The notes under the pieces: generated by a model | What the model was told of the DNA's origin: nothing | What the model saw: only the letters and a program-made list of their open reading frames with translations | Database searches by the model: none | Translations under genes and position numbers: made by a program | Shown here: positions 7,550 to 64,000 of the stretch, one piece after another | How positions within the stretch are numbered: the first letter of the stretch is position 1 | Layout: every line of letters starts with the position of its first letter | NCBI GenBank assembly: GCA_032718475.1 | Contig: JAUCBJ010007602.1 | Coordinates: forward strand, 13,783 to 77,782 | Length of the DNA: 64,000 nucleotides | Origin: Nemertoderma westbladi | Lineage: Eukaryota; Animalia; Xenacoelomorpha | Direction of reading: 5' to 3'

Positions 7550-8742
7550 TGTTCGCTCAGATTTTAGCCTAACTAATGTTCCCCAGATTTTCCCTCGGTC
7601 CTAGTCTTGGTGCCGTAGTGTCGGTGTCGGTCGACCCTGTCGCGTGTCCGTCCCACCCCTCCAGAACCCCGAAGGGATCGATCATCGAGAACCAGTACGG
7701 CTTGGCTAAGGGTCGGTCCAGTCGGTAGACTCTGTCGCGTATCCGTACCACCCCTCTCGAACCCCGAAGGGATCGGTCATCGAGAACCAGTACGGCTTGG
7801 CTAGGAGTCTGTTGTGTCGGTGGACCCGTTTGCGTGTCTGTCCCACCCCTCACGAGCCCCGAAGGGAACGATCATTGAGAACCAGTACGGCTTGGCTAGG
7901 GGTCCGTCGGTTCATCGCAGAGACCCAACCACCTAGGCTTTCCGAGACCTTATTCAGGCTCGTAGTCGTTTCGGCAGCCGAGAAACTGCTCCGAACAGTC
8001 GGTAGGCCAGTAGAGTCCAGTCCTCTGTCTTTCAACCCCGTCGCGTGTCCGTCCCACCCCTCACGAACCCCAAAGGGAACGATCATCGAGAACCAGTACG
8101 GCTTGGCTAAGGGGTCTGTCGTCGGTTCCCATCGCAAATCCCTGGCACAAGCAGCAGACTTTCCGATGTCCTTTTCAGGCTCGTAATAACTGCTGTTGAC
8201 CAGAGACCGCTAAGGGCAGTCCTCGTCAAACCCTTCCTCTGTTAGTCGGCCGCCCTTTCGCGTGTCCGTCCCACCCCTCGCGAACCCCGAAGGGATCGGT
8301 CATCGAGAACCAGTACGGCTTGGCTAAGGGGGCTGTCGTTTCCCGTCGCAAATCCCTGACACAAGCAGCAGACTTTCCGATGTCCTTTTCAGGCTCGTAA
8401 TAACTGCTGTTGGCCAGGGACCACTAAGGGCAGTCCTTGTCCTTTAGACCTAGCGAGTTACCAAATCCACCTCTACAGGCAGCAGGAAGTTGGCTAAGCC
8501 TAATAGTAGTCAGGTAAACCTGAATACTGCTTAACTTTGCCTCCCACCCCTGGCCCTTATAAATATGAAATGAGTCCCGTACCCAGTAAGTCGCCCCAAT
8601 ATTCGCCCATAAATCGCCCCCAGTTCATAGAGTGTGCCCAAAACCCGTGGTCCCGCACCCAGTAGTGATATCGGAATAATCATTTTAAATAAATACAAAA
8701 AATATTCAACTCGCGTTATGAAAAGTTGAAATACCGCGAACA
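7550..8742 (-). repeat. 5' LTR of element 1 (1193 bp)
   Basis: Terminal inverted repeats TGTTCGC...GCGAACA (TG...CA), TATA-like TATTTATAA at 8565-8557 on the minus strand, satellite resumes at 8743. The partner LTR is outside the window. Confidence 0.75.
7639..8330 (-). repeat. Five ~70-bp repeats within the LTR of element 1
   Basis: GCGTGTCCGTCCCACCCCTC..AACCCCGAAGGGATCG.TCATCGAGAACCAGTACGGCTTGGCTA at about 7642, 7737, 7832, 8043 and 8260. Confidence 0.9.
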
Positions 8743-14280: not shown

Positions 14281-14348
14281 TCGAAGCAGTCATCATCAAC
14301 ATCACTGACTAGTCAGATGTCTAGTAAGATATAATCCCCCAGTAAACC

Positions 14349-23653: not shown

Positions 23654-23657
23654 TTTG

Positions 23658-23921: not shown

Positions 23922-23926
23922 AAACC

Positions 23927-42779: not shown

Positions 42780-43806
42780 TAATTGAAGAGATACGCCTAT
42801 TCCTACTATTGGAAGAGACGGTAACAATACCTGCAATATCCTACTGTAAAGTTTGTAAATCAAATCATAAATCCGACCTTCTCACCAAAACAGTAAACTC
42901 TAAGTAAGCGAATATATTGCAGTATCGATCTCTTATAACCGGTGAGGCAGAAAACAGTCTACGAGCAGACAAACTTCGATAAAACAAATCCCGCGCAGCG
43001 AATCCTAAAATCAGGCTGACTCACTGACGGACTAAGAGGCTCGTATACTTTGCCGCGGTGTGATTTATATGGTTGAGCAAAGGGGCGCTAGCTAGGTATA
43101 GAGCAGATATTTGGAGATGTCTAACTAGCGGGCAAAGCACAGTACGGACTAAGTTAATTTTATATATTTCGAGGTGTAAATAATTTCTAACGCGCGTGTG
43201 TTAATTCTGAACGGTCAAAAACAGTTTTGCTCCTTCACATATATAATTACTGGGTACGGTGTGCATTTACGAATATTCTAATTTTGTAACTTGTAGGTCC
43301 AATACTCACGAATGATAAGGTCCCTTCCCCTCTTGCGTATTTCCAGGACTCAAATTCAGGCATAAGGTTAATACTACGCCCAGAATTCGGCAATTTTAGG
43401 TACCAGGTCCCTGATACTAAGAAGAGATGTGTTAGTTTACTACTGTAGGCGTACGGGTACTAATAGCTATCCTGGCTCCTATCTAGAATTCTAGTCACCC
43501 AGGTAGTCCGGGTAACTTCCTATTAGGGCGTTGGCGGGGACACGGTAGATGTTAGTATATCCCTGATAGCCTCAATTTATTTGCGCCTAGTGTAAACTGC
43601 CCTACCGCCTGAACGGTACAATCCCAATTCAGGTGAAAACACAGCAACCCCCCTAGCCTACAAGTTCTGATGTAATGGACACTGTTGTACGGCAAATAGT
43701 CGCACACACACCTGTACTTAGCAAGAGTTAAGCGTACAGTTTGCTGCACCCTAACCAATGTGTATGCCTTGTACCGGTGTGCCTACGTCCTATCTGCGTA
43801 CTAGTA
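42780..43806 (-). repeat. Putative 3' LTR of element 2A (about 1027 bp; TA...TA ends)
   Basis: The left end TAATTGAAGAG is shared by three copies. The right end is inferred from the adjacent PPT and an imperfect inverted repeat (TAATTG / CTAGTA). Confidence 0.65.
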
Positions 43807-43838
43807 TCTGCTCTCTCTCCCTCCCCCGTAGGAATGTG
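43807..43838 (-). promoter_or_regulatory. Polypurine tract (43807-43827) preceded by an 11-mer complementary to the PBS (43828-43838)
   Basis: The minus strand reads CACATTCCTAC-GGGGGAGGGAGAGAGAGCAGA-TACTAG; the same arrangement occurs at 62449-62481. Confidence 0.7.
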
Positions 43839-44485
43839 AAGGTCTACTGTGGGTTTTCCTGAATCAAGACAGTACAGTCCCTATGATGTAATTTTAGGCT
43901 TGCAGCGTGTCACTACGTCTACCTCTTGATCTTTTGGTCTTATACTTAGGTAGCAAGGATCGAACGCTGTCTAACCTTTCAGGCGATGGGCGAATAACTC
44001 TAAGATGGTATTGCGGGTTGTCTCTCGTCTACATTCCCGTGATGTTCCCGTTCATTGCTGCGGCCCGATCTCTAGCCGGCCATCCTGTCCCTGAGTTTGT
44101 TCACCGTAGTGAATTCATAGTAAAACAGAAAAGCTGAGAGAATATTCTGACTTTATTACAGAAGACACAATTATAATACAATGTAATCTGAGAATAAACT
44201 AAGCACGACAGAATAAATCTGAGAAGTATAGATTGAAAATTGAAGATAGTGTGAGTGATAACTAATGAACGAATCGCACCTTTATATACTAAATTTGTGC
44301 TGCAATCAATCGAGAAAATTCTCGATTGTTCTATGGGTTCTAACAAGGTTTTAAAGATAGCTTATTGGTCCAGCTAATATATAACTTGCACGACATTGGT
44401 TACAATCAAATAACTACAGCCTTATTGGTACAGACAAATGCAATTAATTTGTAGCGGTTAATTTAAATGAGTTGAAATTCTGCAC

Positions 44486-44573
44486 AAAAAATAATTCGCA
44501 CTTACTAGGATTCGAACTCGATACCTACTACACATATAATTTCCAACGCTCTACCAACTGAGCTACTGAACCA
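44486..44573 (-). ncRNA. tRNA-like Pol III cassette inside element 2A (degenerate; not a functional tRNA)
   Basis: TAGCTCAGTTGGTAGAGC (A box and D-arm), GAGTTCGAATCC (B box), then TTTTTT; acceptor and anticodon stems do not pair; identical copy at about 63119-63206. Confidence 0.55.
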
Positions 44574-45396
44574 CTTGACCGATAGATACACAATAGATAG
44601 AACCAATACTAATGAGAACTCAAAGCAATCTTTACAAAGTTAATTCGAATAAAATAAAATTTTGAAAATCCACGGCATTTAGGGAATATAATTCTATACC
44701 GCTCCATGAAAACAGGATATTATCGTGCATAAAAATATACGGTTTTCACCAATAATCAATCAAACTATAGAATACTTAGGGCGTACTTACATATTTACAA
44801 TTAAATTTCAAACAATACTTCCTTTCTACGTAATGATTCGATACAAAATAATTACAAATTCAAACTTTACGTATTTAAGGCTTTACTAAGTAAGTACAAT
44901 ATAAATCTAAATTAAATTCACCAATATAAATCTATTGCATCTCAATATTGCATAAATTTAAACAATTACAAATACAAATAAATGAAAACAATAAGAAAGG
45001 CTCGCGAGTCTTCCATCTACTATTGCATCCCAAATATTGCATAAATTCAAGTAATTACAAATACTTTCGTACCTAAATGTAGATTGCATAAGTTTGGAAT
45101 AATTACAAATATGAGTCTTTCTGAGCACAAAATTTTCCATCTATAAAACTTTCTATTTCACTGTAAATACAAATACTGCTTATAAAATATAAATTGCATA
45201 ATATTCGGAACTCTTTAGGTAAGTTCGGAATAATCACAAATATAAAATATAAATTCTTACAAATATAAATCTTTCAAATATAAGTTCCTTCTAAATATAA
45301 ACACTTAAATTTTCTAAATATAAAACATATAATTCAAAATAAATCACTAATCATAAGAAAGGCCCACGAGTCTTCCGTCCACCCTTGCCCTCCCTT

Positions 45397-48300
45397 TTAT
45401 CGCTTAGTAGATCGAGCCCTGCCGCGTCCTCGAAAACTGCGCACAGGTGACTTTGCTCGCGATATGGGACTTGTGGGGCGAGTCACTGGTTTACTTGGGA
45501 CGTTGAGGGACGGTGCGACTATTTCCTCGCAAATTCGTCTATTTGGCATCCCAAAACCTCGACCAATTCCTCGTGACCGATCAGTTGTCGCTACAGTTGG
45601 TAGAACGTCTGGGAACTCGCGAAAGGCGGACGACGCAGACCCAAGAGTAGCTTGCGCCCCCTGTTGATCAGCTGGTGTATGTCCCGATCCTCCTACCGGT
45701 TCTCTTGGAAGTGATACCGTATCCCGAGTAACTCGAATAGTCGGCTCAACTCCCTTGCGTTCTTCTACATTAATAATTTTCTTTAATTGTTGGCCCACTT
45801 TCTGGACCCGTATGATCCTACCCTGTCCGTCCTCCCGAGGGTGACGTGCAGACGGCGCAACCGGAGTGGCTGATATATTCGTCGCCTCTAGGACCTCCTC
45901 TTCCTCGAATACGCTCGCTCGTATACGTTTGTGGTAAAACGCGGCTCGGTACGCCCATGCGACGGTTAACCAAGCTCCCTTGTTCCGCTTTTCAGTTCGG
46001 AAACGATCGAATTCACCATACGTAATCCGATTAACGACTTTCTGAAAATTCCACGTGTTTTTGTTATCTGGGTGAATCTGTAACAGATACTCGCGCACCA
46101 CTCGGAATCCGCTGTCGTGGGGCAAAATATCAACAACCTCGATAAGTTCGTCATATTGGGGCATAGCGGAGATATATCCTTCCGACATCATCGTCTGAGG
46201 GTTTACCGCCCAAAATCCGAGATGCGCTCTCATCGGAAACCGTCTTCTCTGTGCCGATACATGTTCGTCGGCTAAATCTTCCCACTCATCAAATAACTTC
46301 CTCACAAGTTTTACAGATTCGTGTTCATAAGGTATATCTCTCAGTTGGCATTCAGATGCTCGATGTCCCTTTATATTGCAGTAAGTACATTGAGCCATAA
46401 ATCTCCAGCAAGTATAAAAGGTATGAGACCCTTGATCCCCACACCATCCACAGATTAGCTGAGTCGTAGTAATGTGCTTTCCACTGCACTTTGCCATATG
46501 ATGTCCAGCGACGCCACATTTACTACACATCGTATTGGCAGGGTACCACACTCGTTCGTATATAAGATCTCCAATCGGTCGAGCGCTTCCTCCCATACTA
46601 TAATCGTAATCATCTGGGTCTATGGGTTGGTAGGTTTCTGAAGGTTGTAGGCAAACTATAGCATCTGTTGCTTCAAGTTGTCGAATCTCCGTCTGAGATT
46701 TCTTCGGGAGGTTCCTTTCAATCTCAAGAAGTTCCTCTAAAGGATCGTCGGCGATCGTAGTAGTTACTTCGAATTCATCACCAAGGTGACCGATAGGCGC
46801 GCGCGTCTGCCGTGATTCATCCGTAATTTCCACGATACGTTCTCCTTCATAGGGTAACAATGTAAACATAGATGGTCTTTCGATAAGAGATCCCGCACAG
46901 CGAAGATACACGTCTCGAAATATGCTAAATCCTGCTCGAGTAAAGGCATTACACTGAGCGTCGGAGTTGTAGAAGGGTTCAAGGAATCGTCTAAACACGT
47001 CGGTACGAATTCTCCCTTCCATGTAGAACGTATGATCTTCTCCGAGACAAAGTGGATGTCTTTTGAGAGTCCGAGACACAATGTCGGCGATTAGGCAAAC
47101 ATTCACTGACGACTCTATCGCTAAATAATATTGTAAGACCGCTCTTGGAGGTGACGTAATAGCCCAATACACGCATCCTCTCCATTTAAGCTGTGATTCA
47201 AACTCACTCATATCTGGAGTATCACCTTCTCCATAAGTTTCAATATACTTGTTCCTTTTACCTTCCTTATAATCCCAATTGAATAACAGGTAGGAAATGT
47301 ATCCAGTTCCAGTCTTCTGAGTATTATACTCACGAAAATATCCCTGTTCTATAGACCACAGAATAAGAGGTCGAGTGTCGACGTATGGTGTCGGTAGTCG
47401 GTCATCGCTGTCCGTCATGCCGGCGAAGTCGCTAATTAAATCCTCCCTTACTCCTGATCCAACCTTTACAACAGTTTTATCTAAAATCATGTTTCTTACC
47501 ATCTTCGGTAACATTCTAGCGTCAATATTACAAGCTTGGTCCATCTTCTTTACTATATCGGTGATAAGATGGTGTCGCTTTGTATTCGCTGGAGGTATCG
47601 GCATTCGTTTGTCGCTCCTCTGTCTACTGAAAACGTGCAGAACTCCGTCCGCCGCTCTAATCTGTATAGTCTTAGAAGTCAAACTTTGCTGATGACTGCC
47701 GCCCTCGTTATCGTAAAACATATAACCGTTTTCCTGAAACGATCTAAACGTCCTAGTCCATTCATCCAACAATTCTTCCGAAGGTTGCCAAATCTTCTCT
47801 ATATCCTTATCCTCATCGAAACGAATAACCTTACCTCGCCAATCTGCGGCAATATCCGTATCCGACTCGAAGGTTCCGATTCCAATCCATAAACGAATCG
47901 TCTTGGTTAGATATCCTTTCAGATTACTCGGAGCTATGTCGGCACCAGCTCTATCCAGTTCCTTAAAATCTTGGATATGAGGTGGAACGTTGTTCACGAC
48001 CTTTTGAGTAATATGTCTACGTAAATCATATATCTTACTCATATCGCTGAAAACAACTGCAGGAAGAAACTCCAAGTTTGAAATGATTTCTGGATGATCC
48101 ACGATGGGTATTTCGTACGTCGTATCCTGTCGGACTGGTATACTAATAGGGAAATTGAGTGTCGTACTCAATGGTTTCGTAGCTGAAGTACTATACGGTT
48201 GCATTTCTCTTGGCCTCTCCGGGGATGCAATCTGTAATCTCTGAATAACGTTTTGAGCAAAGTTTATGCTCTCGAAAACTTCCGGTGTCATCTCCTTAGC

Positions 48301-49122
48301 TGAAGTTTGATCGTGTGACGTCCAATGGCAAGGTAGGCTCGCGAGTCTTCCACCCCATTCTTCCATCTCACCTTTCTCGAAAGCCTTGTAGGCTCTGTAT
48401 AGGCTAAGAGCTTCTTTCTTTTCGCGGGTTGACTGATTCGCCTCGTCCAGCGTAAGTTCAAATACATCGGGTTCAACAACCTTAGGTGGGTAAATGACAG
48501 TTTCTCCCGCCTTTGGTCCGGTCATAGCAAATGAATGATATGGATTCGATAAAGGATACCCTCCTTCCTGGTAGCGTAGTTGTTGATGATTCGAACACCT
48601 CGCCAATATCGGTTCGGGATTTTCCTTATTCAAACGCATCGGAATCGCATTTCGTTGTTCGCGCATACAAGAACCGCATTGATAATAAAGTTTATAAACT
48701 GAAAATGCTTCCTTGGTTTCTCTATCGTCCCCTCGAGTTCGTCTGTAAAGATGCATTCCATCGAATTCATCGCGTACCGCGGGCATAGGTTCGTGCGCCT
48801 TTAGGTATTGCATGGTATGATACAAACGACTAATTTCAGTATCGGGGTCTTCGCTAATGTCTCCCGTATCACACAAAGCATCGTACGGGTAAAGTTCGTT
48901 GAAGGTTTGGCGCAAACTTTCGATTCTTTCGTTTAATGCGTTTTGCCTTCTCTTTAATACATTCGAGTCATATTTAGTTCTCGCGAGTTTCGCTGTACTT
49001 TCCGATAATTCTTTTATACCAAATATAGTGTAATCCTTGGCTCCAAATCTTTCGAATGGCGCTGCTGCCTCCTCTTGGATATCATATCCCCATCTCGGCT
49101 CTCCTTGTATCCCTTTCTCCAT
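45397..49122 (-). CDS. 1241-aa accessory protein: DEDDy-type (WRN/EXD/Mut-7-like) 3'-5' exonuclease domain plus three CCHC zinc knuckles
   Basis: MFYDNEG (ExoI, 47704-47712), TIQI, LPKMVRNMILDKTVVKVGSGVREDL (ExoII), YVDT, GTGYISYLLFNWDYK, QYYLAIES (ExoIII-like); CSKCGVAGHHMAKC, CGWCGDQGSHTFYTC, CTYCNIKGHRASEC. Confidence 0.85.
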   Translation of the reverse strand: MEKGIQGEPRWGYDIQEEAAAPFERFGAKDYTIFGIKELSESTAKLARTKYDSNVLKRRQNALNERIESLRQTFNELYPYDALCDTGDISEDPDTEISRLYHTMQYLKAHEPMPAVRDEFDGMHLYRRTRGDDRETKEAFSVYKLYYQCGSCMREQRNAIPMRLNKENPEPILARCSNHQQLRYQEGGYPLSNPYHSFAMTGPKAGETVIYPPKVVEPDVFELTLDEANQSTREKKEALSLYRAYKAFEKGEMEEWGGRLASLPCHWTSHDQTSAKEMTPEVFESINFAQNVIQRLQIASPERPREMQPYSTSATKPLSTTLNFPISIPVRQDTTYEIPIVDHPEIISNLEFLPAVVFSDMSKIYDLRRHITQKVVNNVPPHIQDFKELDRAGADIAPSNLKGYLTKTIRLWIGIGTFESDTDIAADWRGKVIRFDEDKDIEKIWQPSEELLDEWTRTFRSFQENGYMFYDNEGGSHQQSLTSKTIQIRAADGVLHVFSRQRSDKRMPIPPANTKRHHLITDIVKKMDQACNIDARMLPKMVRNMILDKTVVKVGSGVREDLISDFAGMTDSDDRLPTPYVDTRPLILWSIEQGYFREYNTQKTGTGYISYLLFNWDYKEGKRNKYIETYGEGDTPDMSEFESQLKWRGCVYWAITSPPRAVLQYYLAIESSVNVCLIADIVSRTLKRHPLCLGEDHTFYMEGRIRTDVFRRFLEPFYNSDAQCNAFTRAGFSIFRDVYLRCAGSLIERPSMFTLLPYEGERIVEITDESRQTRAPIGHLGDEFEVTTTIADDPLEELLEIERNLPKKSQTEIRQLEATDAIVCLQPSETYQPIDPDDYDYSMGGSARPIGDLIYERVWYPANTMCSKCGVAGHHMAKCSGKHITTTQLICGWCGDQGSHTFYTCWRFMAQCTYCNIKGHRASECQLRDIPYEHESVKLVRKLFDEWEDLADEHVSAQRRRFPMRAHLGFWAVNPQTMMSEGYISAMPQYDELIEVVDILPHDSGFRVVREYLLQIHPDNKNTWNFQKVVNRITYGEFDRFRTEKRNKGAWLTVAWAYRAAFYHKRIRASVFEEEEVLEATNISATPVAPSARHPREDGQGRIIRVQKVGQQLKKIINVEERKGVEPTIRVTRDTVSLPREPVGGSGHTPADQQGAQATLGSASSAFREFPDVLPTVATTDRSRGIGRGFGMPNRRICEEIVAPSLNVPSKPVTRPTSPISRAKSPVRSFRGRGRARSTKR

Positions 49123-49779
49123 AATTAGGGTGTAGTTACATAATCATTACTACTAGAGGGAATACAACAGAGTTTGTAGTTAGTTGTGAGGAGACGTGAG
49201 AGTTTCGTCTGCCCTTTGGGCTCGACAACGCTCTAACCTCCTACCCATAGCCTAAGATCTAGGGTTTCTTTAATGACACGCTGCTTCTTATCTAAAATTT
49301 TTGCCGAAATAAAAACGAATTTGGGCTAAACTGGCCGTGAGTCTAAAATACTCACTTTTTGATCCCAAACTATTATCAGAAAATAAGCAGTCAAGAATTA
49401 GTAATAAATATAGGGGAGTCTATTTTGACGTAACTTATTGAAACAAGACCGTGTAAAATTTTATTAAAATTTTAAGAAAGGCTCGCAAGTCTTCCTCTCT
49501 TGTTTCTCTAATTTTAAGTTCCACCCGACTGTACCCTGAAATCTATTCACTGGAGAAATTTTTAAAAATTTTTCAAATCCAAATGGATTGTCTAAAATTT
49601 CGAAAATGTCTCAATATTGTGAGTTCCAAGTAGAATTCCATTTCTTATACCTACAAATCCCGCTCCTATGTGACACATAAGGGTACTACCCTCAATGTTC
49701 ACATATAAAGACAATGGAATTCTACCGCTGTCCTTACTACGGTGTACAGGTACGTGGAAATCTATTTGTAAACTTCTAA

Positions 49780-52700
49780 TTATTTACTTGTATTAGGTGG
49801 AGATTTGTAGTCTCCAGACTCGTTACGAGTTTCTTCAAGAAGTACGAGACGTTGAGTCGGTCTGTCTACTGTACGACCGTCAATTGTCCGTACTGTCACA
49901 GTTCTTGTCACTCCATCCATAGATGGATGTGTGGCTAAAATGACACCTGTTATCCAGAAGCGTCTTTTTAGATTCACTTCTGCCAACAGCACGTGATCTC
50001 CCGGCTTTAATGCGCGGGTGTTATTGTACCATGTTGTTCTGGCAGAAATAGAGGGCAAATAATGGTTTTGCCATATTTCCCAGAATTTGTTAGCCAGTAG
50101 TTGCGTGATTTTCCACGCTTTTCTACCGTAACTGTCGCTTTCTATTGGAATAGAAATCGGCGTTAATGTCGTCGGTGCCTGCATAAGCAGGTGTGCCGGT
50201 GTTAAAGCAAACTGGGATTGTTTGTCATCGGGTACTAATACTATTGGTCTAGTATTTAGTATTGCCTCGATTTCAACAAACAATGTTGTCAGTTGGTCGT
50301 CTGTTAATATGTGGTTTACTGGAATGACCTTTGCCATTGCCGTCTTTATAGATCTAATCAATCTCTCCCAGACTCCGCCTCTCCAAGGACTATCTGGAGG
50401 ATTAAACTTCCAAACAATCTTGTGAGGTTGAAGTTCGTTCGAGATTTGATCATGATCTAATTTCTTAAAGGCTCTAGCAATCTCATTCCGAGCACCAACA
50501 AAGTTTGTCCCTTGGTCTGAGTACAAGCATTTTACTAGTCCGCGTCTAGCGATAAATCGCCGCAGTGCTAGTATAAACGCGTTGGTGGAAAGATCCATCA
50601 CACGTTCAATGTGAACTGCCCTACTGGACATACATGTGAAAATCAGTCCCCAGCGTTTTACTAGTATGCGTCCACGTTTCGTATGTATGGGACCAAAGCA
50701 ATCAATTCCAGTCTCTGTAAAAGGTGGCCTGAATGCTTGAAGTCGTGCTTGTGGTAGTTCACTCATTTCTTGGGTACCTATTCTAGAATGTACCTTTTTA
50801 CAAATAATACACGTACGTGTCACTGAACTTAATGCTTTACTGGGTCTAATTAATACAAATCTAGTACGTAAGTAGGAAAGACAGTGGTGTCTTCCAGCGT
50901 GTTTCAGATGTAAATGTGCGTCCAGTATCATTGCACGTTGTAGTTCGTGATGTTGCGGTATTATTATTGGGTACCTAAAGTTTGTGTTAAAGTCAATGTT
51001 TTGAAGCCGAGATTTATGACAAATCAAGCCATTATAAATAATCGGACTCCAACTCAGTATTGGTGACGACTTGATTGGTTGACCTTGATTTATAGATGTG
51101 AATTCGCGCGCGAAATATCGCAGTTGGTAATGGCGAATTAATTTAATCTCACACCTGTCAATCTCAGCCAATGTAAGTCGACGTGTAAAGTCACGTTTGC
51201 CTTTAACATATTGTACAAAACGTACAATCCACGCTAACTTTCGGCAAGCGTTTGACCAAGAGTCTGTTAAGTTTACAATGCGGTCGACGTAAGTATTTGT
51301 GACGTCATCAGGTAAGTCAATGGAGATTTTGGAAGGTTTTAAATTACTAGAAGGGCCCACGGGTCCGCCGGTAGGTATTCCCTTGTTGACTGTTGATCCG
51401 TCGGGGTCTACAAGTAATTTGTCCTTCTTTGTCTTCTTACCTTGATTGTCGGTACTTTGTAAGTCGATCGTTAATGGTGGTTTGAACTCTATGGGGTCAG
51501 CAGGTTTCGGTAAACTTATTTTCCTGCCGACATTAATCCCAGGTCTCACCATAGGTTGTAAGTTCGGTATGTCTCTTGAGCGCAAAGTAACACCTGTATT
51601 TACATTAGCGTAGGTACTACCCACATCTGCAATACATGAGGTTTCACCATGCTTATGGTTGCTCAAGTGTGTCAAAATTGGTAGTTTGTCAATACAAGGC
51701 CGCTCCAATAGGGAAACTGCGGCTTTATTGTTAGTCAATACATTACTAGTGTCTAGTCGACTGTCTAGTAATGTGTCTGGCGATACGTCTGGTAACGTAT
51801 CTAGTTGTTTGTCAATAGAAGGCCGCTCCAATAGGGAAACTGCGGCTTTACTGTTAGTCAATACATTACTAGTGTCTAGTCGACTGTCTAGTAATGTGTC
51901 TGGCGATACGTCTGGTAACGTATCTAGTTGTTTGTCAATAGAAGGCCGCTCCAATAGGGAAACTGCGGCTTTATTGTTAGTCAATACATTACTAGTGTCT
52001 AGTCGACTGTCTAGTAATGTGTCTGGCGATACGTCTGGTAACGTATCTAGTTGTTTGTCAATAGAAGGCCGCTCCAATAGGGAAACTGCGGCTTTATTGT
52101 TAGTCAATGTGTTACTAGCGTCTGGTGGAACATTTTGTGATATGTCTGGCAAAACGTCTGGTTGACCGTCTAGTAACGTGTCTGGTTGACCGTCTGGTGA
52201 TATGTCTGGTGTAGAAAGGCTCGCAAGTCTTCCTCTCTTGACCTTTGAAGTTATATCCTTCCATTTCGCCTTCGGTTTTTTCTTGAGTTTTGCCGCCGTC
52301 CTTTTCTTTGTATCGACGGGCATTGTTGATGTCGTTGGGGTAGGTAGACTCGCAAGCCTATCATCTGTCGTCGATGGAATCTCTAGCTGACTCGTCTTCT
52401 CCCCAAGTTCTAAACTCACCTTGTGGATTAGCTGCTCCTTGTGACTTATCATACTAGTTACACGTCTGTTATGTTTTGTCGACTGTAGTGTAGTATGGTT
52501 CACGTCGTGTGAAAAGGAATGAATTGAATTTATAGTTAATAAACTACATGTACTCTGTACATCGTCTTCCTCGTCACTTACGTCTAGTGTGCGCACAGGC
52601 GCTCGAGTATACCACCCTATCGGCGTTCTGCAGGCGTATGCGTTTCCTGCTACAACTGCCGATGGTCTGGTTTCCCACACCTGATGTAGGTTGAATTGGT

Positions 52701-55405
52701 CCGTCCCGATCAGCATTGCTACCGATCTATAATTGACAGGACATTCGGGTACACCAAGGTGTCTGAAATACTTACGGTCCTCCAGAGATTGTTCCGGCAC
52801 TGGACCTAGTAGGTTACTAAAGTCCTTCGTGGCCGCAAAGGTTAGATCTCTAAAGGGCAACAAAGACCTCTCCCTCTCGCTATGCTGCGATTTTGGAAGA
52901 AGAGAGTCTAAGTCCAACTTAACTCGTGTCACTGGTATTGCACGCTGGCCGTGCATACTACTTACTGTATAACTGACGTGTTTACCTTGTCTTAGATCCG
53001 TCACGACGTCAGCTATCTTTTCGTCCACGTAGCTATGGGATGAGGCTGAATCTAGAATCGCATAGATCCTCTTGCTCCCTTTTGTGCCAGTAACCTTAAT
53101 CGGGATTACACTGAATCCCTTCAGTTGATCCGTAGTCAGGAGCGCGATCGACGGTTGTTCGTCTCCATTGGAATATTCGTCATCGTCTTCTGATTCTTCG
53201 TCCGACGATCCGGATTGTTCTGAGAAGCAATCCTCAATATGTGTCACGAAGGTCGGAGTCGTTTTCGATTCTCGTTTTCGGTAGGCCGCATCGCATCTCG
53301 CTGCTGCTTCCGGGTGTTCCCTGGCGAAGCGTTTCGTCGGCGTGTGGCTGTCTGTGTGGAGCAGACCGTCATGGTTGCGTCCACAGGATGGACAAGTGTC
53401 GGTATTTGGGCAATCCTTGCGCACGTGTCCGTGTCGCGTACACCGCCAACAAGAGTCCAGTGGCCGTATCTGCAGCCGTCGTTCTTCCGAGTTCAACTCG
53501 CGAAATTGTCGACAACCTCGTAACTTGTGACCAATATACCGCTTACCTAGATGTTCGCAGTATTGGCAGCCGTTGAAGTCGGTGCTGAGTTGCTGTCTCG
53601 TCTGTTTCGTCCCAATGGGCGCAGATACTCTATTACCGTCTGAGAATTGTCGTGATTCCGTCGGTGCGGCGTAAGTGGCCGTCTTTGTGGATGTTGTCTG
53701 GGGTTTTTGTCGGTTGGAGGATGGCAGTGTGATCCCTTCTGCCACGATGTGCTGGTCGGTATAGTTAGATCGAGTTTCTACTACCGCCTCCCTGGATATT
53801 AAAAGGTACACATCTTCTAATTTTAGGAATCCTCCTCGCTCCTCTCGCTGGTATTCGACCTTCCTCCACTCCCGACGAAGTCGATGGTGGAGTCGTCCTA
53901 TTATCTTTAATAGAACTGTAGGGGTATTCCCGTAATCAAGTTGTCCAATTGATCTTAAGGTAGTGATAGCGTTCTTGATCTCGTCAGCCAGTTTTAGTAA
54001 GTCGACGGGTTTAGTGATAGCCCCTCCCTTACAGAGTTCCTCTATTACTGACCTGGCCATACTCACTGTACCTCCGTATATCGAAGTTAAACGATCGTAC
54101 GCTAGTTCGAAAGCGTCCGGTACACCAACGAAGGTCTCCGCCAAACGTTTAGGTTCTCCTGACAACGTTTGGAGCAAGTAATTGAACTTCTCCCGTGATG
54201 TAAAGGCGCACACGGCGATCTGGGATTCGATATAGTCTACGAAGGTATGCCAGTGTTTTGAGCTACCGGAAAACTTCGGTGGTTGTTGTACCGGCAATCC
54301 CTGTCTGGCTGCGAATTTCGCTATCTCCTCGGCAACGTTCAGAGTTTCGCGTCCTTGGTTGGTGACTTGGTTGATATCCCTTCTTGGCGCTTTTCCCTGA
54401 TACGATGTGGGGTTTGAAGGTACCGGTCTTTGTGGTTCCTTCTGGTGTCTATTGTGTTCGAATTCGGAATTTCTCGAACTGTCGGTTTGAACTTCCTCCA
54501 GACGCTCCTCGATCTGAGCCAACTTATTTACAACTGGTCGCAGAATGTCGGCGAACTGTTGTGTACTAATTGCGTCCGTTGGTTGTAACGCCTTCTGTGT
54601 TGGTGTATTCTGTGGAGGATTGTCTGCAAAGGAGTTGTCTGAACGCTCGCGTTTATATTCATCGGCCGCCCCTGTTCTAAATACCTCGCGTTTCGGGTAA
54701 TCCGACTCGCTCGAAGTACTACTGTCACCTGGATACGGTGGTCGACGTGCTCGAGTCCGTTGCGCCGTTCGAATCCTAACATTCCGTTTCGGAACATCGT
54801 CCACTGATCTCCGTTGTTCGGTAGGCTCACAAGTCTTCCTCGAAGTCGTAGATTGCGATGTAAATTGGTTGAATGGTCGCGTCTCCACTGTTCTCCGTTG
54901 TTCGGTAGGCTCACAAGTCTTCCTCGAAGTCGTAGATTGCGATATAAATTGGTTGAATGGTCGCGTCTCCACTGTTCTCCGTTGTTCGGTAGGCTCACAA
55001 GTCTTCCTCGAAGTCGTAGATTGCGATGTAAATTGGTTGAATGGTCGCGTCTCCACTGTTCTCCGTTGTTCGGTAGGCTCACAAGTCTTCCTCGAAGTCG
55101 TAGATTGCGATGTAAATTGGTTGAATGGTCGCGTCTCCACTGTTCTCCGTTGTTCGGTAGGCTCACAAGTCTTCCTCGAAGTCGTAGATTGCGATGTAAA
55201 TTGGTTGAATGGTGGGCGAATGACAGCATTTGAAACAACTGGCCTTGTCGGTCGAAACGTCATTGGGTAAGCGTAGTGTGTAACGGGTTTAGGTGTCGAC
55301 GGTGGACTCACCTGTTTAGTTGTCAGTAGTGCAGGTCCAGTCAACAAACTACTACGATCCGTAATCGGTGGGTTACTTACCTTGACTTTCGGAATGGGCG
55401 ACGAC
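49780..55405 (-). CDS. Element 2A polyprotein, C-terminal part: gag core, 3 zinc knuckles, protease, repeat spacer, integrase
   Basis: PKFSGSSKHWHTF; CQYC..H..C, CWRCTRHGHVRKDC, CPSCGRNHDGLLH; AILDSAS; HLHLKH..CIIC; GIDCFGP, SDQGTNF, GGVWERLI; FWEIWQNHYL. No YxDD RT motif. Confidence 0.92.
51680..52125 (-). repeat. 114-bp (38-aa) coding tandem repeat, about 3.5 copies, in the PR-IN spacer
   Basis: TNNKAAVSLLERPSIDKQLDTLPDVSPDTLLDSRLDTSNVL repeated. Confidence 0.9.
54799..55213 (-). repeat. 84-bp (28-aa) coding tandem repeat, 5 copies, in gag
   Basis: PFNQFTSQSTTSRKTCEPTEQRRTVETR repeated. Confidence 0.95.
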
Positions 55406-58282
55406 TAGGGTGGCACTTATTTTTCGAATTTTGAAATTCCATCGGGACGCCCCCGCAACCGGTTCCAATGAGCATAAAAACAACGTGTGTAAAAGGATTT
55501 TGAAAAATATTAATATTTAGAGGTGCCGCAACGAGGTCAAAGTTTGCTTATTTTTTGCAAAAATGGAAATCTATTTTTACTTATTTATAAATGTTCCAAG
55601 TGTGAAATTTACAGTTTTAGGCTTCAACATATTCATATTTAATATATATTCATATATAACATATCTAAATAACATATTTTGACTAACATTTTTGAGTCTA
55701 TAGGTCCCCCTCTTCCCGAGTATTAGCCCCTCAATGTTAGTTTGCAGAGGTCACGGTGGACTTGCGGGCGTCCGGAAACTTCCGGCGGTGCTCCTCGACA
55801 ACCTGAAGCAGGTACTGCCTTTGTGACTCGTCCTTAGTCAGGCAGAGATTGAATTCCTGCATCATGGCGACGCCGCGCTCCGCAAAGTCGTTCACAACTT
55901 TGAGGCGGCGAACGCGGCGGGCGCCGGCCAGGTAGACCTCGTCGGTGTGCCAATCCGCGGGGTCGCTGTCGAGGAACTCGCTGTCGAGGCCCATGGCGCG
56001 GAAGAGCTTCTTCGACGAGCTTGTTACAAAGTCGGCGAGGGACTTCTTGCCGACTCCATCGCTCGTCATGTCGACGTTGATGCGCCGCGCGGGATCGTCG
56101 CTGCCCTCCTCCTCCAATGCCTTCACCATGGCTCGCTTCGTCGCCAGCGACGTGCCGTCGTCGAAGAAGGCGAGGGCGACGAGCGACTCGCTGACATACC
56201 AGAGGTGGCGGGCGAAGACCTTGGCCGTCGCCTTCGCTAAAGCCTTGTCGTGGAACGCCACGAGGCTCTTGGCGAATGCCAAGTCGTTCGCTGGAGCGGA
56301 CGCTGCGAGCGGCGCGACGAACCACGCGGGGATGTAGGCCAGCACCGCGAACACCACGAAGCGCCGCAGTCCGTTCAGCTCCTTGGCTGTCAGCTTAAAC
56401 TGGGCCCGAAACAAGTAGATCTTGAGCCCGTAGATCACTTTGGCCATCCACCGCGCATGGTGGAGGGCACCGGGGCGCTGGAAGCGCACGCCTCGTTTCG
56501 GGACACCGCCGAGGACGATGACGGCCAGCTCAAGCAGCTCGCGATAATCGTCGCGTGGCTGGGCGTTGTCGAGGTGGCGGCGGAAGGTGGCAATCAGGTC
56601 GTCGCGGCTGTCCAAGAGCGCCGGGGGCGCTTCGTCGTCGGCGCCGACTGCATCCCACGCCGCGATGTTGACGAAGGCCCAGTTCTCCTTGAAGCGCTTG
56701 AAGAGGAGCACGTCCGGACCGGATGTCCCTCCCATGCACTCCTCGTAGGCCTTGGCGGCCACCAGCTCGTAGACGTGATGGCGACACGCCAGATGAAGCA
56801 CCTCGCGGCCAAGACGCTGCTCGATGAGCGTGCAGGCCCCGTTCGACGTACCGGTATTCGATGCCGTGGTGTCGAACGACAAAGCTGCCACCCGTTGGGT
56901 TATGTCCCAGTCGTCCAAGGCGTTCATCACCGCTGTCGCCTGGGCGTCACCGCTCCCGTTCGGGAGCTTGGGTACGGCGAGGAGCTTGGCTACTCCGTCG
57001 CCGGTAACCAAAACAGGCAGGCGATCCTCGCTCGGGCCACCGTCCGCGGCCGGGACGATTTTTCCGTCCCAATGGACCGTCAAGGGGACGTCTGGTGCGA
57101 ACGCTGCTTTGATCTCAGCGGCCGACACCTGGCGGAACTTGATTCGCTCTTTCCTGAACGATTCGCGGTTCATCACGACAGAAGCGGGGTCCACGCCAAA
57201 GCTCCGCGCGGCCGCAGATAGGACGTGCACCGCCTGTCGGTTGGACATCTTCGTCCGGTCCATCGCGGACGAGAGACCGACGTCGACGATCTTCGTCGTC
57301 GCACGACGCTTTGGTGGAGATGGAGAGGGAGCCGCCGACGTCCCTGGCTGGGCGTCGTCGTCGGAGTTATTGTTCGAGCTGGAGCTCGACGCCAGTTGGT
57401 ACCTCTCGTCAGCCTCGCGCTTGTTCTCGTCCACCTGACGGCGCCTCTCCTCCGTTCTCGTCATTCGCCGATGTTGACGCGCTTCCAGAACGGCCTGTTG
57501 TTCGTCCGTTCCCGCCATTGTACCGCGCCGCCCCTTCTCACGCTGTGCGAGGAGAAAAGCTTTGTCCTCCTCCAGGCGGATCAGCTTCAGAGCATCACCA
57601 TGAGTGATGTCGAACAGGTCGTCGAGTTTTGCCTTGAACTTCTCCTCGTTGGCGGTCTGAGTCGCGGAGCGCCGCCTGCTGCTCTTGTTCATGTTCCGCC
57701 ATTCGTCGAAGAGCTTGAGCAGACGCTCGCGGCCGCGCTGCTCCTTCTGGACCGGGATCCGGGCACGGTGCCAGAACGGGATGATCAGCTTCAGCGTCTG
57801 GGCCGCGGCATCCGACTTCGTCAGCTTGTCGTCGAGATGCCGATGCAGGAAGTACCCAAGTGCCTGTCGAATCGACGGCAGCTTGGAGCCGTGGATGTCT
57901 TCCTCGACATGCCCCAGGAGGTATACTGCGGTCTTTGACCGTGTACGAGTAGCACTAGCCATCTGTGGGTCAGGTGGGAAACGCATTATAGGTCAACTTG
58001 TATATTTTAATGTGTACAAAATGTGTTATTTAGTTCAAATGTAAACATATTAAAGCCTAAAAGGATATATTTCACACGTGGAAAATTTATAAATAAGTAA
58101 AAATAGATTTCCATTTTTGCAAAAAATAAGCAAACTTTGACCTCGTTGCGGCACCTCTAAATATTAATATTTTTCAAAATCCTTTTACACACGTTGTTTT
58201 TATGCTCATTGGAACCGGTTGCGGGGGCGTCCCGATGGAATTTCGAAAAAAACACAAAAAATGTCAAATAAGTGCCACCCTA
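55406..58282 (-). mobile_element. hAT-superfamily (hATm-like) DNA transposon, 2877 bp, apparently intact
   Basis: TAGGGTGGCACTTATTT...AAATAAGTGCCACCCTA termini with long subterminal inverted repeats (about 200 bp); 8-bp TSD GCGACGAC (55398-55405 and 58283-58290). Confidence 0.95.
55737..57986 (-). CDS. hATm-like transposase (749 aa)
   Basis: VHWDGK, FDTTASNTG, LACRHHVYEL, HHARWMAK, RHLWY and VVNDFAERGV motifs. Confidence 0.9.
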   Translation of the reverse strand: MRFPPDPQMASATRTRSKTAVYLLGHVEEDIHGSKLPSIRQALGYFLHRHLDDKLTKSDAAAQTLKLIIPFWHRARIPVQKEQRGRERLLKLFDEWRNMNKSSRRRSATQTANEEKFKAKLDDLFDITHGDALKLIRLEEDKAFLLAQREKGRRGTMAGTDEQQAVLEARQHRRMTRTEERRRQVDENKREADERYQLASSSSSNNNSDDDAQPGTSAAPSPSPPKRRATTKIVDVGLSSAMDRTKMSNRQAVHVLSAAARSFGVDPASVVMNRESFRKERIKFRQVSAAEIKAAFAPDVPLTVHWDGKIVPAADGGPSEDRLPVLVTGDGVAKLLAVPKLPNGSGDAQATAVMNALDDWDITQRVAALSFDTTASNTGTSNGACTLIEQRLGREVLHLACRHHVYELVAAKAYEECMGGTSGPDVLLFKRFKENWAFVNIAAWDAVGADDEAPPALLDSRDDLIATFRRHLDNAQPRDDYRELLELAVIVLGGVPKRGVRFQRPGALHHARWMAKVIYGLKIYLFRAQFKLTAKELNGLRRFVVFAVLAYIPAWFVAPLAASAPANDLAFAKSLVAFHDKALAKATAKVFARHLWYVSESLVALAFFDDGTSLATKRAMVKALEEEGSDDPARRINVDMTSDGVGKKSLADFVTSSSKKLFRAMGLDSEFLDSDPADWHTDEVYLAGARRVRRLKVVNDFAERGVAMMQEFNLCLTKDESQRQYLLQVVEEHRRKFPDARKSTVTSAN

Positions 58283-59957
58283 GCGACGACGTTGCTCTTG
58301 GCGGTATAAACTCGTCCGGAATAACAAACCTGTGTTCCGTCGCACCACGGATAGGAGAAATATCACTACTACCCGCAATCGAAACAGGTTCCTTAGTCGT
58401 AACCGGTGCAAACATATGAGTTACCTGTGGGAATCGTTGACACACGTCTTTTACTAATTGTCGTTCCCGTCCGGGTGCTCCTACGCTTCCTTCCTTCTTC
58501 CGTTCCTGAATTTGGCGATGTCTTACCTCTAACTGGTCCAAATCATGTCCGTCACGAGATCTCATCGATCTATCGCGCGCCTTTTGATCCAAATCTTCCT
58601 CGGCGTTCGCTAATTCTCTCGCCTTCTTCTCGAGTTCGAAATGAAGTTTCACTGTCTTCTCTCGTTGTTCCGTTTGTTGTCGTTGCGCCTCAAACTCCGC
58701 TTGTCGTATAGCGGATTGAGCTTTTATTTGCCGTGTTTTCATTTCGGCCCGCGCTTCCGAAACTAACCTTTCTCGTTGTAATTCTGCCGCTGCCGTTTGT
58801 CGCTCCAACTCGGCCGCTGCGTTTCGTCGCTCCAACTCGGCCGCTGCCGCTGCCGTTTGTCGCTCCAACTCGGCCGCTGCCGCTGCCGTTTGTCGCTCCA
58901 ACTCGGCCGCTGCCGCTCGTCGCTCTACCTCGGCCGCTGCCGCTGCCGCTTGTCGGGCAATGTCTAACTCTAACCTTTCTACTTCAGCTGCTTCTAATTC
59001 AGCTTGTTCCTGTAGATGAGAGATTCTTGCTATATTCGCAACGCGTAGCTTCTCTTCCTCTACTGCTGCTTGCATCACTAGAAGTTGAGCTTGTTCTTCC
59101 ATTTCTTGTCGTTGTCGGTGGAATTCTTGCTGTTGTCGAGCAACTTCTGACGTGACTATACTTCCCTCGCAGATTTCGCTACGAATACTTACCAACGATT
59201 GGTCCAGTATTCCCGGTGCCGATTCGATTCGTACGGGTGAAGTTTCCCTCGTATATTCCGGCACGGTTTCCCAATCTCCGACGTCTTCGCCGCACATACG
59301 TAAGTGGTCCGTCAGGTGTTTTAATTGTCCATCCAGTCGGTACAGTTCCTGTTCTTCCTCGGGTTGTAATAATTCGTCCGAAACTGACTCACCTAACAAC
59401 TGGTCCGCTTGTTCCTGTTGTATCTGTCTAATCGTCGACTTAAACTGAATCAGTTTCTCTCTAGTGATCATTAGTTTCTCGAGGATTCTAAGTTGAGTAT
59501 CCATGTCCTGTCTCTGTCTAGCTAGATCTTGTAGGCCAACTAGATTATCTACGGACTTATATACTTTACTCTGTACTCTAACCTGGAGGGTGTAGAACTC
59601 GAATCGAGACATCGGAGCGGTCAACCCGTCTAATATGCGTTGGCCTTCTCCAATACTCCTGGTAATATGCGCCATGTATCCACCGACGCTTCTAACCACA
59701 CTTTCTGTGCTTCCTGCTGAACTTACCATTTCCGTTTCCCTATATCTAGGTTGCGGAACAGTTAGAAAGTCCTCGGTCCTGCCGTCGCCTCGTACTACGG
59801 CATCCGGTACTCCCGTTGGATGTACTGGTGACGCACACGGTGTAGGTTCGGTAGGCTCGCGAGTCTTCCCCTGTTGTCCTTCCGCTGCTGACTTATCCGC
59901 GTCACATGAGTCATAGTCGGTTTGTGTATTCTTCGTATAGTCTTGTTTGTCACTCAT
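58283..59957 (-). CDS. Element 2A polyprotein, N-terminal coiled-coil gag part
   Basis: Removing the hAT element and one TSD joins ...PPRATSS to PIPKVKVSNPP...LLTGPALL in frame, giving one ORF of about 2430 aa. Confidence 0.9.
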
Positions 59958-60753
59958 TTCGGTAGTTGTAAGTCAAGTAAAGTGAGTGTCAAAGTATCGA
60001 GTTTACCGTATTTATCTAAACGGTACTAATTACAGTCTTATAAAATTAGCCTACCGGCCGATTTTATAGCAGATGGATAAAATTAGCCTAAACGGCCAAT
60101 TTTACAGCAAATAAATGTCACGGAATAAGTATATAATAAAATTAGCCTAGCGGCCAATTTTATAACAAATAAAATCGGATAACGATATGCGTTATCAAAA
60201 GGTAAATTAAATACAATAATACGGACTAATTCAGCAATGAACAAAGAAATCATACGGAATGCATAAATACTTGAGACAGTGGAACCCACAATAATTTTAA
60301 CTAATACGGTAATGCCTAACTTATTTATGCAACTTTTCGAACTCACCCACTCCAATAATTCTCCAGAAAAACAGATTCCCAGATACAAACCGAACGTGAA
60401 CCTTTCCGTTTTTAACGTTGCGGACGAAACGCGATTTTCCCAACCAAAGTTGTTGAGTTATCTATCTCCCAAACTTGCTAAACACGGTCTTGCTCCCGTT
60501 ACAGTCTAGAAATGAGTTCTGAATCCTGAAAAAACAAAAGAGTTAGGTTTTACTTTACGAAAATTTTGTACCGGTACAATATGGTATTTAAACCCTTTTA
60601 AACACCGGTATTCAATTCCAAAATATTTTACACGCGGTTCAAATCAAATTTTATTTCAAAAAATTAGCACTTAGCTAATCAAATACAAATTTTTACCTCA
60701 AAATACAAAATTTTCAAATAACTTTAGTCCTACCGAACCGTAGTTCAGTAAAA

Positions 60754-60764
60754 CACATTCCTAC
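60754..60764 (-). promoter_or_regulatory. Putative non-tRNA primer-binding site GTAGGAATGTG
   Basis: Immediately follows the LTR end (...CTTCAATTA) on the minus strand; does not begin with TGG. Confidence 0.55.
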
Positions 60765-61424
60765 TAATTGAAGAGATACGCCTATTCCTACTATTGGAAG
60801 AGACGGTAACAATACCTGCAATATCCTACTGTAAAGTTTGTAAATCAAATCATAAATCCGACCTTCTCACCAAAACAGTAAACTCTAAGTAAGCGAATAT
60901 ATTGCAGTATCGATCTCTTATAACCGGTGAGGCAGAAAACAGTCTACGAGCAGACAAACTTCGATAAAACAAATCCCGCGCAGCGAATCCTAAAATCAGG
61001 CTGACTCACTGACGGACTAAGGGGCTCGTATACTTTGCCGCGGTGTGATTTATATGGTTGGGCAAAGGGACGCTAGCTAGGTATAGAGCAGATTTGGAGA
61101 TGTCTAACTAGCGGGCAAAGCACAGTACGGACAAAGTTAATTTTATATATTTCGAGGTGTAAATAATTTCTAACGCGCGTGTGTTAATTCTGAACGGTCA
61201 AAACAGTTTTGCTCCTTCACATATATAATTACTGGGTACGGTGTGCATTTTACGAATATTCTAATTTTGTAACTTGTAGGTCCAATACTCACGAATGGTA
61301 AGGTTCCTTCCCCTCTTGCGTATTTCCAGGACTCAAATTCAGGCATAAGGTTAATACTACGCCCAGAATTCGGCAATTTTAGGTACCAGGTCCCTGATAC
61401 TAAGAAGAGATGTGTTAGTTTACT
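60765..61424 (-). repeat. 660-bp U5-side portion of the 5' LTR of element 2A
   Basis: Direct repeat of 42780-43441, directly abutted by another LTR copy at 61425. Confidence 0.9.
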
Positions 61425-64000
61425 TAATTGAAGAGATACGCCTATTCCTACTATCGGAAGAGACGGTAACAATACCTGCAATATCCTACTGTAAAGTTTG
61501 TAAATCAAATCATAAATCCGACCTCCTCACCAAAACAGTAAACCCTAAGTAAGCGAATATATTGCAGTATCGATCTCTTATAACCGGTGAGGCAGAAAAC
61601 AGTCTACGAGCAGACAAACTTCGGTAAAACAAATCCCGCGCAGCGAATCCTAAAATCAGGCTGACTCACTGACGGACTAAGGGGCTCGTATACTTTGCCG
61701 CGGTGTGATTTATATGGTTGGGCAAAGGGACGCTAGCTAGGTATAGAGCAGATTTGGAGATGTCTAACTAGCGGGCAAAGCACAGTACGGACAAAGTTAA
61801 TTTTATATATTTCGAGGTGTAAATAATTTCTAACGCGCGTGTGTTAATTCTGAACGGTCAAAACAGTTTTGCTCCTTCACATATATAATTACTGGGTACG
61901 GTGTGCATTTTACGAATATTCTAATTTTGTAACTTGTAGGTCCAATACTCACGAATGGTAAGGTTCCTTCCCCTCTTGCGTATTTCCAGGACTCAAATTC
62001 AGGCATAAGGTTAATACTACGCCCAGAATTCGGCAATTTTAGGTACCAGGTCCCTGATACTAAGAAGAGATGTGTTAGTTTACTACTGTAGGCGTACAGG
62101 TACTAATAGCTATCCTGGCTCCTATCTAGAATTTTAGTCACCCAGGTAGTCCGGGTAACTTCCTATTAGGGCGTTGGCGGGGACACGGTAGATGTTAGTA
62201 TATCCCTGATAGCCTCAATTTATTTGCGCCTAGCGTAAACTGCCCTACCGCCTGAACGGTACAATCCCAATTCAGGTGAAAACACAGCAACCCCCTAGCC
62301 TACAAGTTCTGATGTAATGGACACTGTTGTACGGCAAATAGTCGCACACACACCTGTACTTAGCAAGAGTTAAGCGTACAGTTTGCTGCACCCTAACCAA
62401 TGTGTATGCCTTGTACCGGTGTGCCTACGTCCTATCTGCGTACTAGTATCTGCTCTCTCTCCCTCCCCCCGTAGGAATGTGAAGGTCTACTGTGGGTTTT
62501 CCTGAATCAAGACAGTACAGTCCCTATGATGTAATTTTAGGCTTACAGCGTGTCACTACGTCTACCTTTTGATCTTTTGGTCTTATACTTAGGTAGCAAG
62601 GATCGAACGCTGTCTAACCTTTCAGGCGATGGGCGAATAACTCTAAGATGGTATTGCGGGTTGTCTCTCGTCTACATTCCCGTGATGTTCCCGTTCATTG
62701 CTGCGGCCCGATCTCTAGCCGGCCATCCTGTCCCTGAGTTTGTTCACCGTAGTGAATTCATAGTAAAACAGAAAAGCTGAGAGAATATTCTGACTTTATT
62801 ACAGAAGACACAATTATAATACAATGTAATCTGAGAATAAACTAAGCACGACAGAATAAATCTGAGAAGTATAGATAAATTAGTATAAGTGTAACTAATG
62901 AACGAATCGCACCTTTATATACTAAATTTGTGCTGCAATCAATCGAGAAAATTCTCGATTGTTCTATGGGTTCTAACAAGGTTTTAAAGATAGCTTATTG
63001 GTCCAGCTAATATATAACTTGCACGACATTGGTTACAATCAAATAACTACAGCCTTATTGGTACAGACAAATGCAATTAATTTGTAGCGGTTAATTTAAA
63101 TGAGTTGAAATTCTGCACAAAAAATAATTCGCACTTACTAGGATTCGAACTCGATACCTACTACACATATAATTTCCAACGCTCTACCAACTGAGCTACT
63201 GAACCACTTGACCGATAGATACACAATAGATAGAACCAATACTAATGAGAACTCAAAGCAATCTTTACAAAGTTAATTCGAATAAAATAAAATTTTGAAA
63301 ATCCACGGCATTTAGGGAATATAATTCTATACCGCTCCATGAAAACAGGATATTATCGTGCATAAAATATACGGTTTTCACCAATAATCAATCAAACTAT
63401 AGAATACTTAGGGCGTACTTACATATTTACAATTAAGTTTCAAACAATACTTCCTTTCTACGTAATGATTCGATACAAAATAATTACAAATTCAAACTTT
63501 ACGTATTTAAGGCTTTACTAAGTAAGTACAATATAAATCTAAATTAAATTCACCAATATAAATCTATTGCATCTCAAATATTGCATAAATTCAAACAATT
63601 ACAAATACAAATAAATGAAAACAATAAGAAAGGCTCGCAAGTCTTCCATCTACTATTGCATCCCAAATATTGCATAAATTCAAGTAATTACAAATACTTT
63701 CGTACCTAAATGTAGATTGCATAAGTTTGGAATAATTACAAATATGAGTCTTTCTGAGCACAAATTTTCTGTCTATAAAACTTTCTAAATACAAAATAAC
63801 ACTTTACAAATGAAACTATAAGAAAGGCCCACGAGTCTTCCATGTACTCTTACTTTCTATTTCACTGTAAATACAAATACTGCTTATAAAATATAAATTG
63901 CATAATATTCGGAACAATATACATTGCATAAGTTCGGAATAATATAAATTGCATAAGTTCGAAATAATCACGTAAATATAAAATATAAATTCTTACTAAA
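61425..64000 (-). mobile_element. 3' end of a second copy (element 2B): LTR 61425-62448, PPT and 3' UTR; runs off the right edge
   Basis: Matches 42780-45260 with scattered substitutions and indels. Confidence 0.9.

Follow-up and report, generated by a model that had tools for sequence, protein, structure and literature searches.

DNA copying of long terminal repeat (LTR) elements is usually primed by a tRNA. The stretch of DNA analysed here comprises 64,000 nucleotides from Nemertoderma westbladi (GenBank assembly GCA_032718475.1, contig JAUCBJ010007602.1, positions 13,783 to 77,782 of the forward strand). We refer to the whole of it as the window and count positions from its first letter. 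It harbors a multi-copy BEL/Pao retrotransposon on the minus strand, as are all BEL features given below, and no tRNA-type TGG follows the LTR of this element. What, then, primes its reverse transcription? The original prediction, made from the sequence of the window, was that the element primes itself by means of an 11-mer. Such a mode is known from Tf1, where a tRNA site is also missing, the primer site pairs with about 11 bases in the LTR of the same element and a cut frees the primer (PMC4600332, PMC10085805; published sources are cited here from excerpts). We suggest, with a probability of roughly 0.55, that an 11-mer inside the LTR of the studied element serves as self-primer in place of a tRNA, in a Tf1-like manner. 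We adopt this reading because the pairing is in exact register, because it withstands tests of chance and because 14 distant relatives carry the same signature in different letters.

The primer site and its complement

The end of the LTR is set at one base by three junctions (60765, 61425 and 42780), all of which read CAATTA. The first base 3´ of the LTR is the start of GTAGGAATGTG, which occupies the primer-binding position 60754..60764 (read 60764-60754) at offset 0. No TGG is present within 4 bases of the LTR end, so the arrangement of a tRNA-primed element is not found. The exact complement of GTAGGAATGTG occurs in the window only at 62481-62471 (62471..62481, in the upstream LTR, the candidate self-primer) and at 43838-43828 (43828..43838, in the 3´ LTR), and each copy is directly followed by a purine tract. 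Both the primer position and the two complements are where the original prediction had placed them. ARAGORN detected no tRNA genes in the window, and neither ARAGORN nor Rfam called anything in the LTR. As a side observation, the three junctions give the impression of an ancestral CA terminus that was extended by a 4-base spacer, so that the LTR now ends in TA.

The match had been claimed to be unlikely by chance, and simulations agree. With offsets 0-3 allowed, second-order Markov simulations produced a complement of at least 11 bases in 4 of 3000 cases for a 2-kb LTR and in 3 of 300 cases for the whole element. The energy of the 11-bp duplex (-18.0 kcal/mol) was equalled in none of 60 shuffles. 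All 11 pairs form at a probability of 0.97-1.0 in a fold of 62490-60730, a segment which begins just upstream of the 11-mer and leaves the longer leader outside. The 11-base match is real and goes beyond chance. One could still imagine a coincidence, or a functionless fossil, that is, an inverted copy left by aberrant reverse transcription. Local duplications do occur here: fold and sequence reading reveal, 27 bases inside the LTR end, a near-duplicate of that end together with 8 bases of the primer site (60781..60806). In addition, a lax score tolerating G-U pairs was equalled in 17 of 200 shuffles. Against this stand the 4 hits in 3000 simulations, the exact register and the recurrence in relatives, and we regard this explanation as highly improbable.

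Extent of the LTR and position of the 11-mer

According to the original prediction, the LTR measures 1027 bases, the purine tract at 43807..43827 is the polypurine tract (PPT), and the primer derives from just outside the 3´ LTR. The 11-mer does adjoin the purine tract. The role of the tract as PPT is not confirmed by contigs from the runs compared with the window. Contig depth was summed over overlapping contigs and is not a copy number. Mean values in run X4 are 91k on the lower side of the tract, 91k and 113k on the upper side, and 32-41k past 44735; the corresponding values in run X1 are 115k, 106k and 190k, and 36-57k. Neither of these two DNA-like runs thus has a step at 43807, and the fall comes instead near 44735. 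A depth dip at 44120-44273 coincides with indels between element copies. Two contigs of run X2 leave the reference at 44698, where TGGAGCGG is followed by TA. This run is recorded as 'DNA?' and is treated as RNA-like only because one GT-AG joint is unique to it.

Motifs of a transcription unit are also found upstream of the tract. Three CCAAT motifs and a TATATAAAGG box (44279..44428), with a predicted start site near 44255, came from a motif search and presumably act as promoter. A first AATAAA with a T-rich downstream stretch (44152..44157) lies 314 bases upstream of the 11-mer, and a second one (43576..43581) lies 246 bases downstream of it. The CCAAT, TATA and first AATAAA motifs are situated 330-600 bases upstream of the purine tract (44428-44152).

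Because of the depth fall, the X2 loose ends, the upstream promoter and poly(A) motifs and the location of the relatives' complement inside the LTR, the LTR is probably about 1.9 kb long and starts near 44700, with the 11-mer and the purine tract inside it and not before a PPT. The 3´ LTR of the studied copy (copy B) would then be 42780..44698, ending CAATTA, with a provisional start. The candidate true PPT, TGGAGCGG at 44699..44706, weakly resembles the GGGGCCGG type of the relatives. The direct repeat extends from 42780 to at least 45263 and then leaves the window, so the LTR start cannot be fixed from the window; given how depth was obtained, as a sum over overlapping contigs that does not measure copy number, the 1.9-kb boundary is likely and not proven. 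Two other starts appear less likely: contigs 44732-44870 run unbroken across 44816, and a start at 45380 rests on one contig skipping 44871-45396.

The 1027-base layout has some points in its favor. The tract, 21 bases long and rich in purines, is followed by TA, which is also how the LTR ends. One divergent X2 contig leaves the reference precisely at 43828, and the window includes no intact 5´ junction. The same contig, however, rejoins the reference at 43948. Together with the lack of a depth step at 43807, the promoter and poly(A) motifs upstream of the tract and the occurrence of such a layout in 0 of 14 relatives, this makes the 1027-base LTR a quite improbable solution. A cut at that place would, moreover, sever the PPT and the LTR from the template.

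Upstream of the primer site, the LTR is present more than once. Repeat comparison identifies a full LTR of an upstream copy A at 61425..63331, nested or in tandem, whose 3´ untranslated region leaves the window, and a second copy of the last 660 LTR bases at 60765..61424, directly before the primer site. This piece is a mosaic: it equals the copy B LTR at 4 sites where A differs, and copy A at 10 columns where B differs, a pattern that recombination or an assembly switch would produce. Separately, the predicted U3 (unique 3´ region) contains a tRNA-like stretch (44505-44575, minus strand) with an A-box and a B-box recognized by eye and a subsequent T run; ARAGORN and Rfam do not call it.

The same signature in distant BEL elements

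A metagenome scan yielded 79 BEL loci. The 64 loci of at least 5 kb were screened for LTR pairs, and 23 hand-picked ones were tested for pairing. At 13 of these the LTR end was set by two copies; at the other 10 the end was chosen by best match, and shuffles were run likewise. Eight of the 13 two-copy loci have a complement of 10-13 bases in the LTR, contiguous in 3 and across a GT-AG junction in 5. Two are of the TGG type with complements of only 4-5 bases, and three, with ill-defined ends, gave no significant match. Among the best-match loci, 8 of 10 carry a complement of 11-14 bases across a junction, each equalled by 0-1 of 40 shuffles, and two carry none. The self-complement together with the lack of a tRNA-type site is thus found at 16 of 23 loci, or in 14 relatives after removal of two duplicates; three of the 14 share nearly one primer site. 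No BEL locus was found in viral contigs.

Matches of at least 10 bases between a primer site and its own LTR occur in 15 of 16 elements, in comparison with 12 of 240 cross-family pairings, 6 of which fall within one trio sharing its primer site. The miss is element 1, a related BEL element at the left end of the window. The original prediction had placed the complement before the PPT, where it is not seen in the relatives: within the last 80 bases ahead of the true 3´ LTR, no complement exceeds 3-6 bases in 14/14 relatives (more than 6 bases in 0/14), and a primer taken from the region at the 3´ end that adjoins the PPT is therefore not supported.

The complement spans a GT-AG splice junction in 11 of the 14 relatives. 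In the studied element, a junction-aware search found no splice junction that lengthens the duplex, and there is no GTRAG donor between the predicted start site and the 11-mer. In one relative, L026, the bases immediately 5´ of the primer end are not the same in the two LTR copies (145-326 and 6694-7103): one has a splice-acceptor-like stretch and the other a contiguous primer. This suggests that intron loss converts the spliced primer type into the contiguous one.

Could the pairing be purely structural, for example a leader switch for packaging, translation or splicing, with some host RNA such as a tRNA half as the real primer? A main poly(A) signal that apparently precedes the 11-mer and the missing complement in element 1 would suit this idea, and half-tRNA primers exist in Copia lineages (PMC6317226). 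Yet the letters of the primer site vary freely among families and track the own LTR, which a fixed host RNA would not allow. Also, the duplex stops no more than 4 bases from the LTR end, at a conserved AC or AT: the primer terminus is AC in 12/14 relatives and AT in 2/14, and AC in the studied element. We hold a purely structural role to be unlikely, but worth keeping in mind.

Another idea concerns the 11-mer copy in the 3´ LTR. Read-through RNA would be cut or trimmed back to the duplex and prime its own 5´ site, the leader remaining template up to the cap. The 11-mer is identical in both LTRs, so that the two copies cannot be told apart from the window, and all LTR information would be kept. 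The open reading frame (ORF) ORF2 of the element, with DEDD-like motifs recognized by eye, could belong to an exonuclease, and rotifer LTR elements have DEDDy ORFs (PMC5408684). The original prediction had considered such an enzyme as one plausible means of exposing the primer. In 14/14 relatives bearing the signature, however, the pol frame ends 73-432 bases before the LTR, and this short gap leaves no room for an exonuclease gene. The exonuclease label of ORF2 found no support from any tool, no precedent turned up in the literature searched, and the same read-through RNA is required as in the reading we prefer. Priming from the 3´ LTR copy therefore strikes us as unlikely.

A proposed model of self-priming

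In the self-priming that we favor, an RNA begun near the TATA box would carry the 11-mer in its leader, and the leader would fold the 11-mer onto the primer site. RNase H would then cut on the 3´ side of the duplex, after the terminal AC, as in Tf1. As the studied copy has neither reverse transcriptase (RT) nor RNase H, both would have to be supplied in trans by an autonomous partner. RT would copy the LTR back to the cut. Strand transfer would require an RNA 3´ end beyond the 11-mer, provided either by a minority read-through genome or by an RNA that primes a co-packaged uncut one. During plus-strand synthesis the primer would serve as template for a new primer site in each cycle, and the two would so stay in step. 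The purine tract would belong to the leader structure and not be a PPT. It can pair with the pyrimidine-rich LTR end, a pairing that ranks 0.016 among LTR windows and resembles the second Tf1 helix.

Several observations weigh against this model, apart from the lax pairing score already mentioned. Firstly, no significant complement was seen in the LTR (1193 bases) of element 1, the nearest relative available, and this speaks against a simple rule for the whole clade. Secondly, in the integrase tree (53 rows, quickly made) the branch of the studied element is long and unplaced, so the relatives serve as an analogy only. Thirdly, the 11-mer seems to come after the main poly(A) signal. The X2/X4 depth ratio drops sevenfold, from about 0.25 to 0.035, at 44120, near the first AATAAA, which is a weak hint given that contigs cannot show RNA ends; the second AATAAA is crossed by an unbroken X2 contig. 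If this hint is right, priming would depend on read-through RNA or on another RNA molecule. The studied element differs in this from its relatives, in 11 of 14 of which an AATAAA or ATTAAA signal comes 11-133 bases downstream of the primer, so that a repeat remains for strand transfer. Finally, support for the LTR start comes from contig depth, which is not copy number, and from two loose contig ends, both in run X2; as a PPT, the purine tract looks better than TGGAGCGG; and the second helix, which in Tf1 belongs to a three-duplex 'pretzel' structure, shows no clear enrichment among relatives (Fisher p 0.07).

A broader generalization is conceivable, which we put forward only tentatively and consider rather doubtful. 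Much of BEL/Pao may self-prime from its own LTR transcript, mostly by way of a spliced LTR intron. In the TA-ended family studied here, the primer would lie beyond the main poly(A) site and only read-through or paired RNAs would prime. Reverse transcription would thereby be tied to the choice of 3´ end, with ORF2 possibly trimming.

Coding content of the element

The assignment to BEL/Pao follows from the proteins. The first part of a gag-like reading frame lies at 58206..59972. Pfam and homologues identify, at 49780..55404, a BEL/Pao gag (DUF1759), a protease-like part and an integrase (Integrase_H2C2, DUF5641), with no RT or RNase H. At E<=1e-30, 645 BEL-type polyproteins match, with identities of 32-42% among the 120 matches listed. 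When three full-length BEL relatives were compared with the window element by tblastn, the RT/RNase H part of all three gave no match, and only their gag, protease and integrase parts did. The present copy is without RT and RNase H and is non-autonomous. The TG...CA ends of BEL/Pao LTRs are not seen, since the three junctions end CAATTA. No chromodomain match was found in the element, and it thus lacks this mark of the Ty3/gypsy chromoviruses.

The gag is interrupted by a DNA transposon (55429..58249) with 221-base inverted ends and a 751-amino-acid frame. It has no Pfam hit, and we presume from its motifs that it is hAT-like. Contigs of four runs join 55397 to 58283 and so bypass it.

ORF2 (45397..49143, 1248 amino acids) contains zinc knuckles and the DEDD-like motifs, both recognized by eye. 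It is homologous (E 1e-7) to the element 1 ORF at 2-1633, with which it has YDNEG and K-x-GS motifs in common. Homologue searches found no relatives of it, and no Pfam, PDB or profile match supports the exonuclease label. Both structure models, at pLDDT (predicted local distance difference test) values of 30-34, are too poor for a fold search. A GTGAG...TAG intron (49153..60346) would give a spliced ORF2 message: the GT-AG joint of 60347 to 49152 is present in X2 and missing from the other three runs. This joint, confined to X2, suggests expression of ORF2 by way of a spliced message in the manner of retroviral env.

Relation to known self-priming systems

Self-priming has been demonstrated in Tf1, and for Tcn1 and TAR it is a prediction (PMC6317226). 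In the literature examined, reports or predictions of it are confined to lineages of Gypsy (Tf1/sushi, Tcn1) and Copia (TAR). With Tf1, Tf2 and Tj1 of the Tf1/sushi group, which are Ty3/gypsy chromoviruses, the studied element has in common the lack of a tRNA site, a pairing of about 11 bases with the own LTR and the need for a cut; here all 11 of 11 bases match, the LTR membership of the 11-mer being judged from depth. It differs from Tf1 in being a BEL/Pao element with LTRs ending in TA. About 420 bases of transcript are predicted to precede its 11-mer, which would not be at the 5´ end, and an AATAAA lies upstream of it. In 11/14 of its BEL relatives, the complement exists only after splicing. 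By analogy, the element would work like Tf1 but outside the Tf1/sushi group.

For the Copia elements TAR (Houba, Osr-1) and for Tcn1, in plants, self-priming was predicted from an LTR complement of at least 10 bases, 0-5 bases after the LTR (PMC6317226), a rule with which the studied element agrees. It belongs to another superfamily and host kingdom, and a splice-made primer is not mentioned for TAR and Tcn1 in the excerpts at hand. BEL/Pao (Belpaoviridae) elements have the same DUF1759 gag and BEL-type integrase with DUF5641; the studied copy departs from them in its missing RT and RNase H, its non-TGG primer site, its TA end and its additional spliced ORF2. The rotifer LTR elements Vesta and Juno resemble it in an additional ORF after pol with possible 3´-5´ exonuclease motifs. 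Their DEDDy ORF3 was, however, assigned by HHpred, and these elements are not of the BEL type (PMC5408684), whereas the label of ORF2 comes from motifs seen by eye.

A term search in the available text of a BEL/Pao review (PMC3118150) found none of the terms PBS, primer and tRNA. By title and abstract, a full-text search that covered neither subscription journals nor Repbase reports returned no paper on BEL/Pao self-priming. If the signature were true of BEL/Pao at large, self-priming would have a third independent origin, this time in animals, and its primer would be an internal one that splicing often creates. The signature would also explain BEL elements without a findable tRNA site and free them from the host tRNA supply. 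Moreover, it would offer a sequence rule for annotating the ends of BEL elements.

Neighbouring elements in the window

Element 1 (window 1-8742) has a non-TGG primer position, 7540-7549, which begins GT, next to a 1193-base TGT...ACA LTR without a significant complement (7540..8742 for both). The LTR contains neither a contiguous nor a splice-junction complement of at least 9 bases. A G-U-rich 14-mer at 8466-8453 was considered and is not significant (10/200 and 76/150 shuffles). Like the studied copy, element 1 is without RT and RNase H and has an ORF2.

A Gypsy element occupies 14349-23925; its LTRs of 268 bases are 99% alike, and it gave a weak PWWP match. It contains, on the opposite strand, a non-LTR element of the PHD-endonuclease-RT type. 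Arrays of 47-48-base and 25-29-base units, at 8743-14348 and 34317-42779, adjoin both BEL elements.

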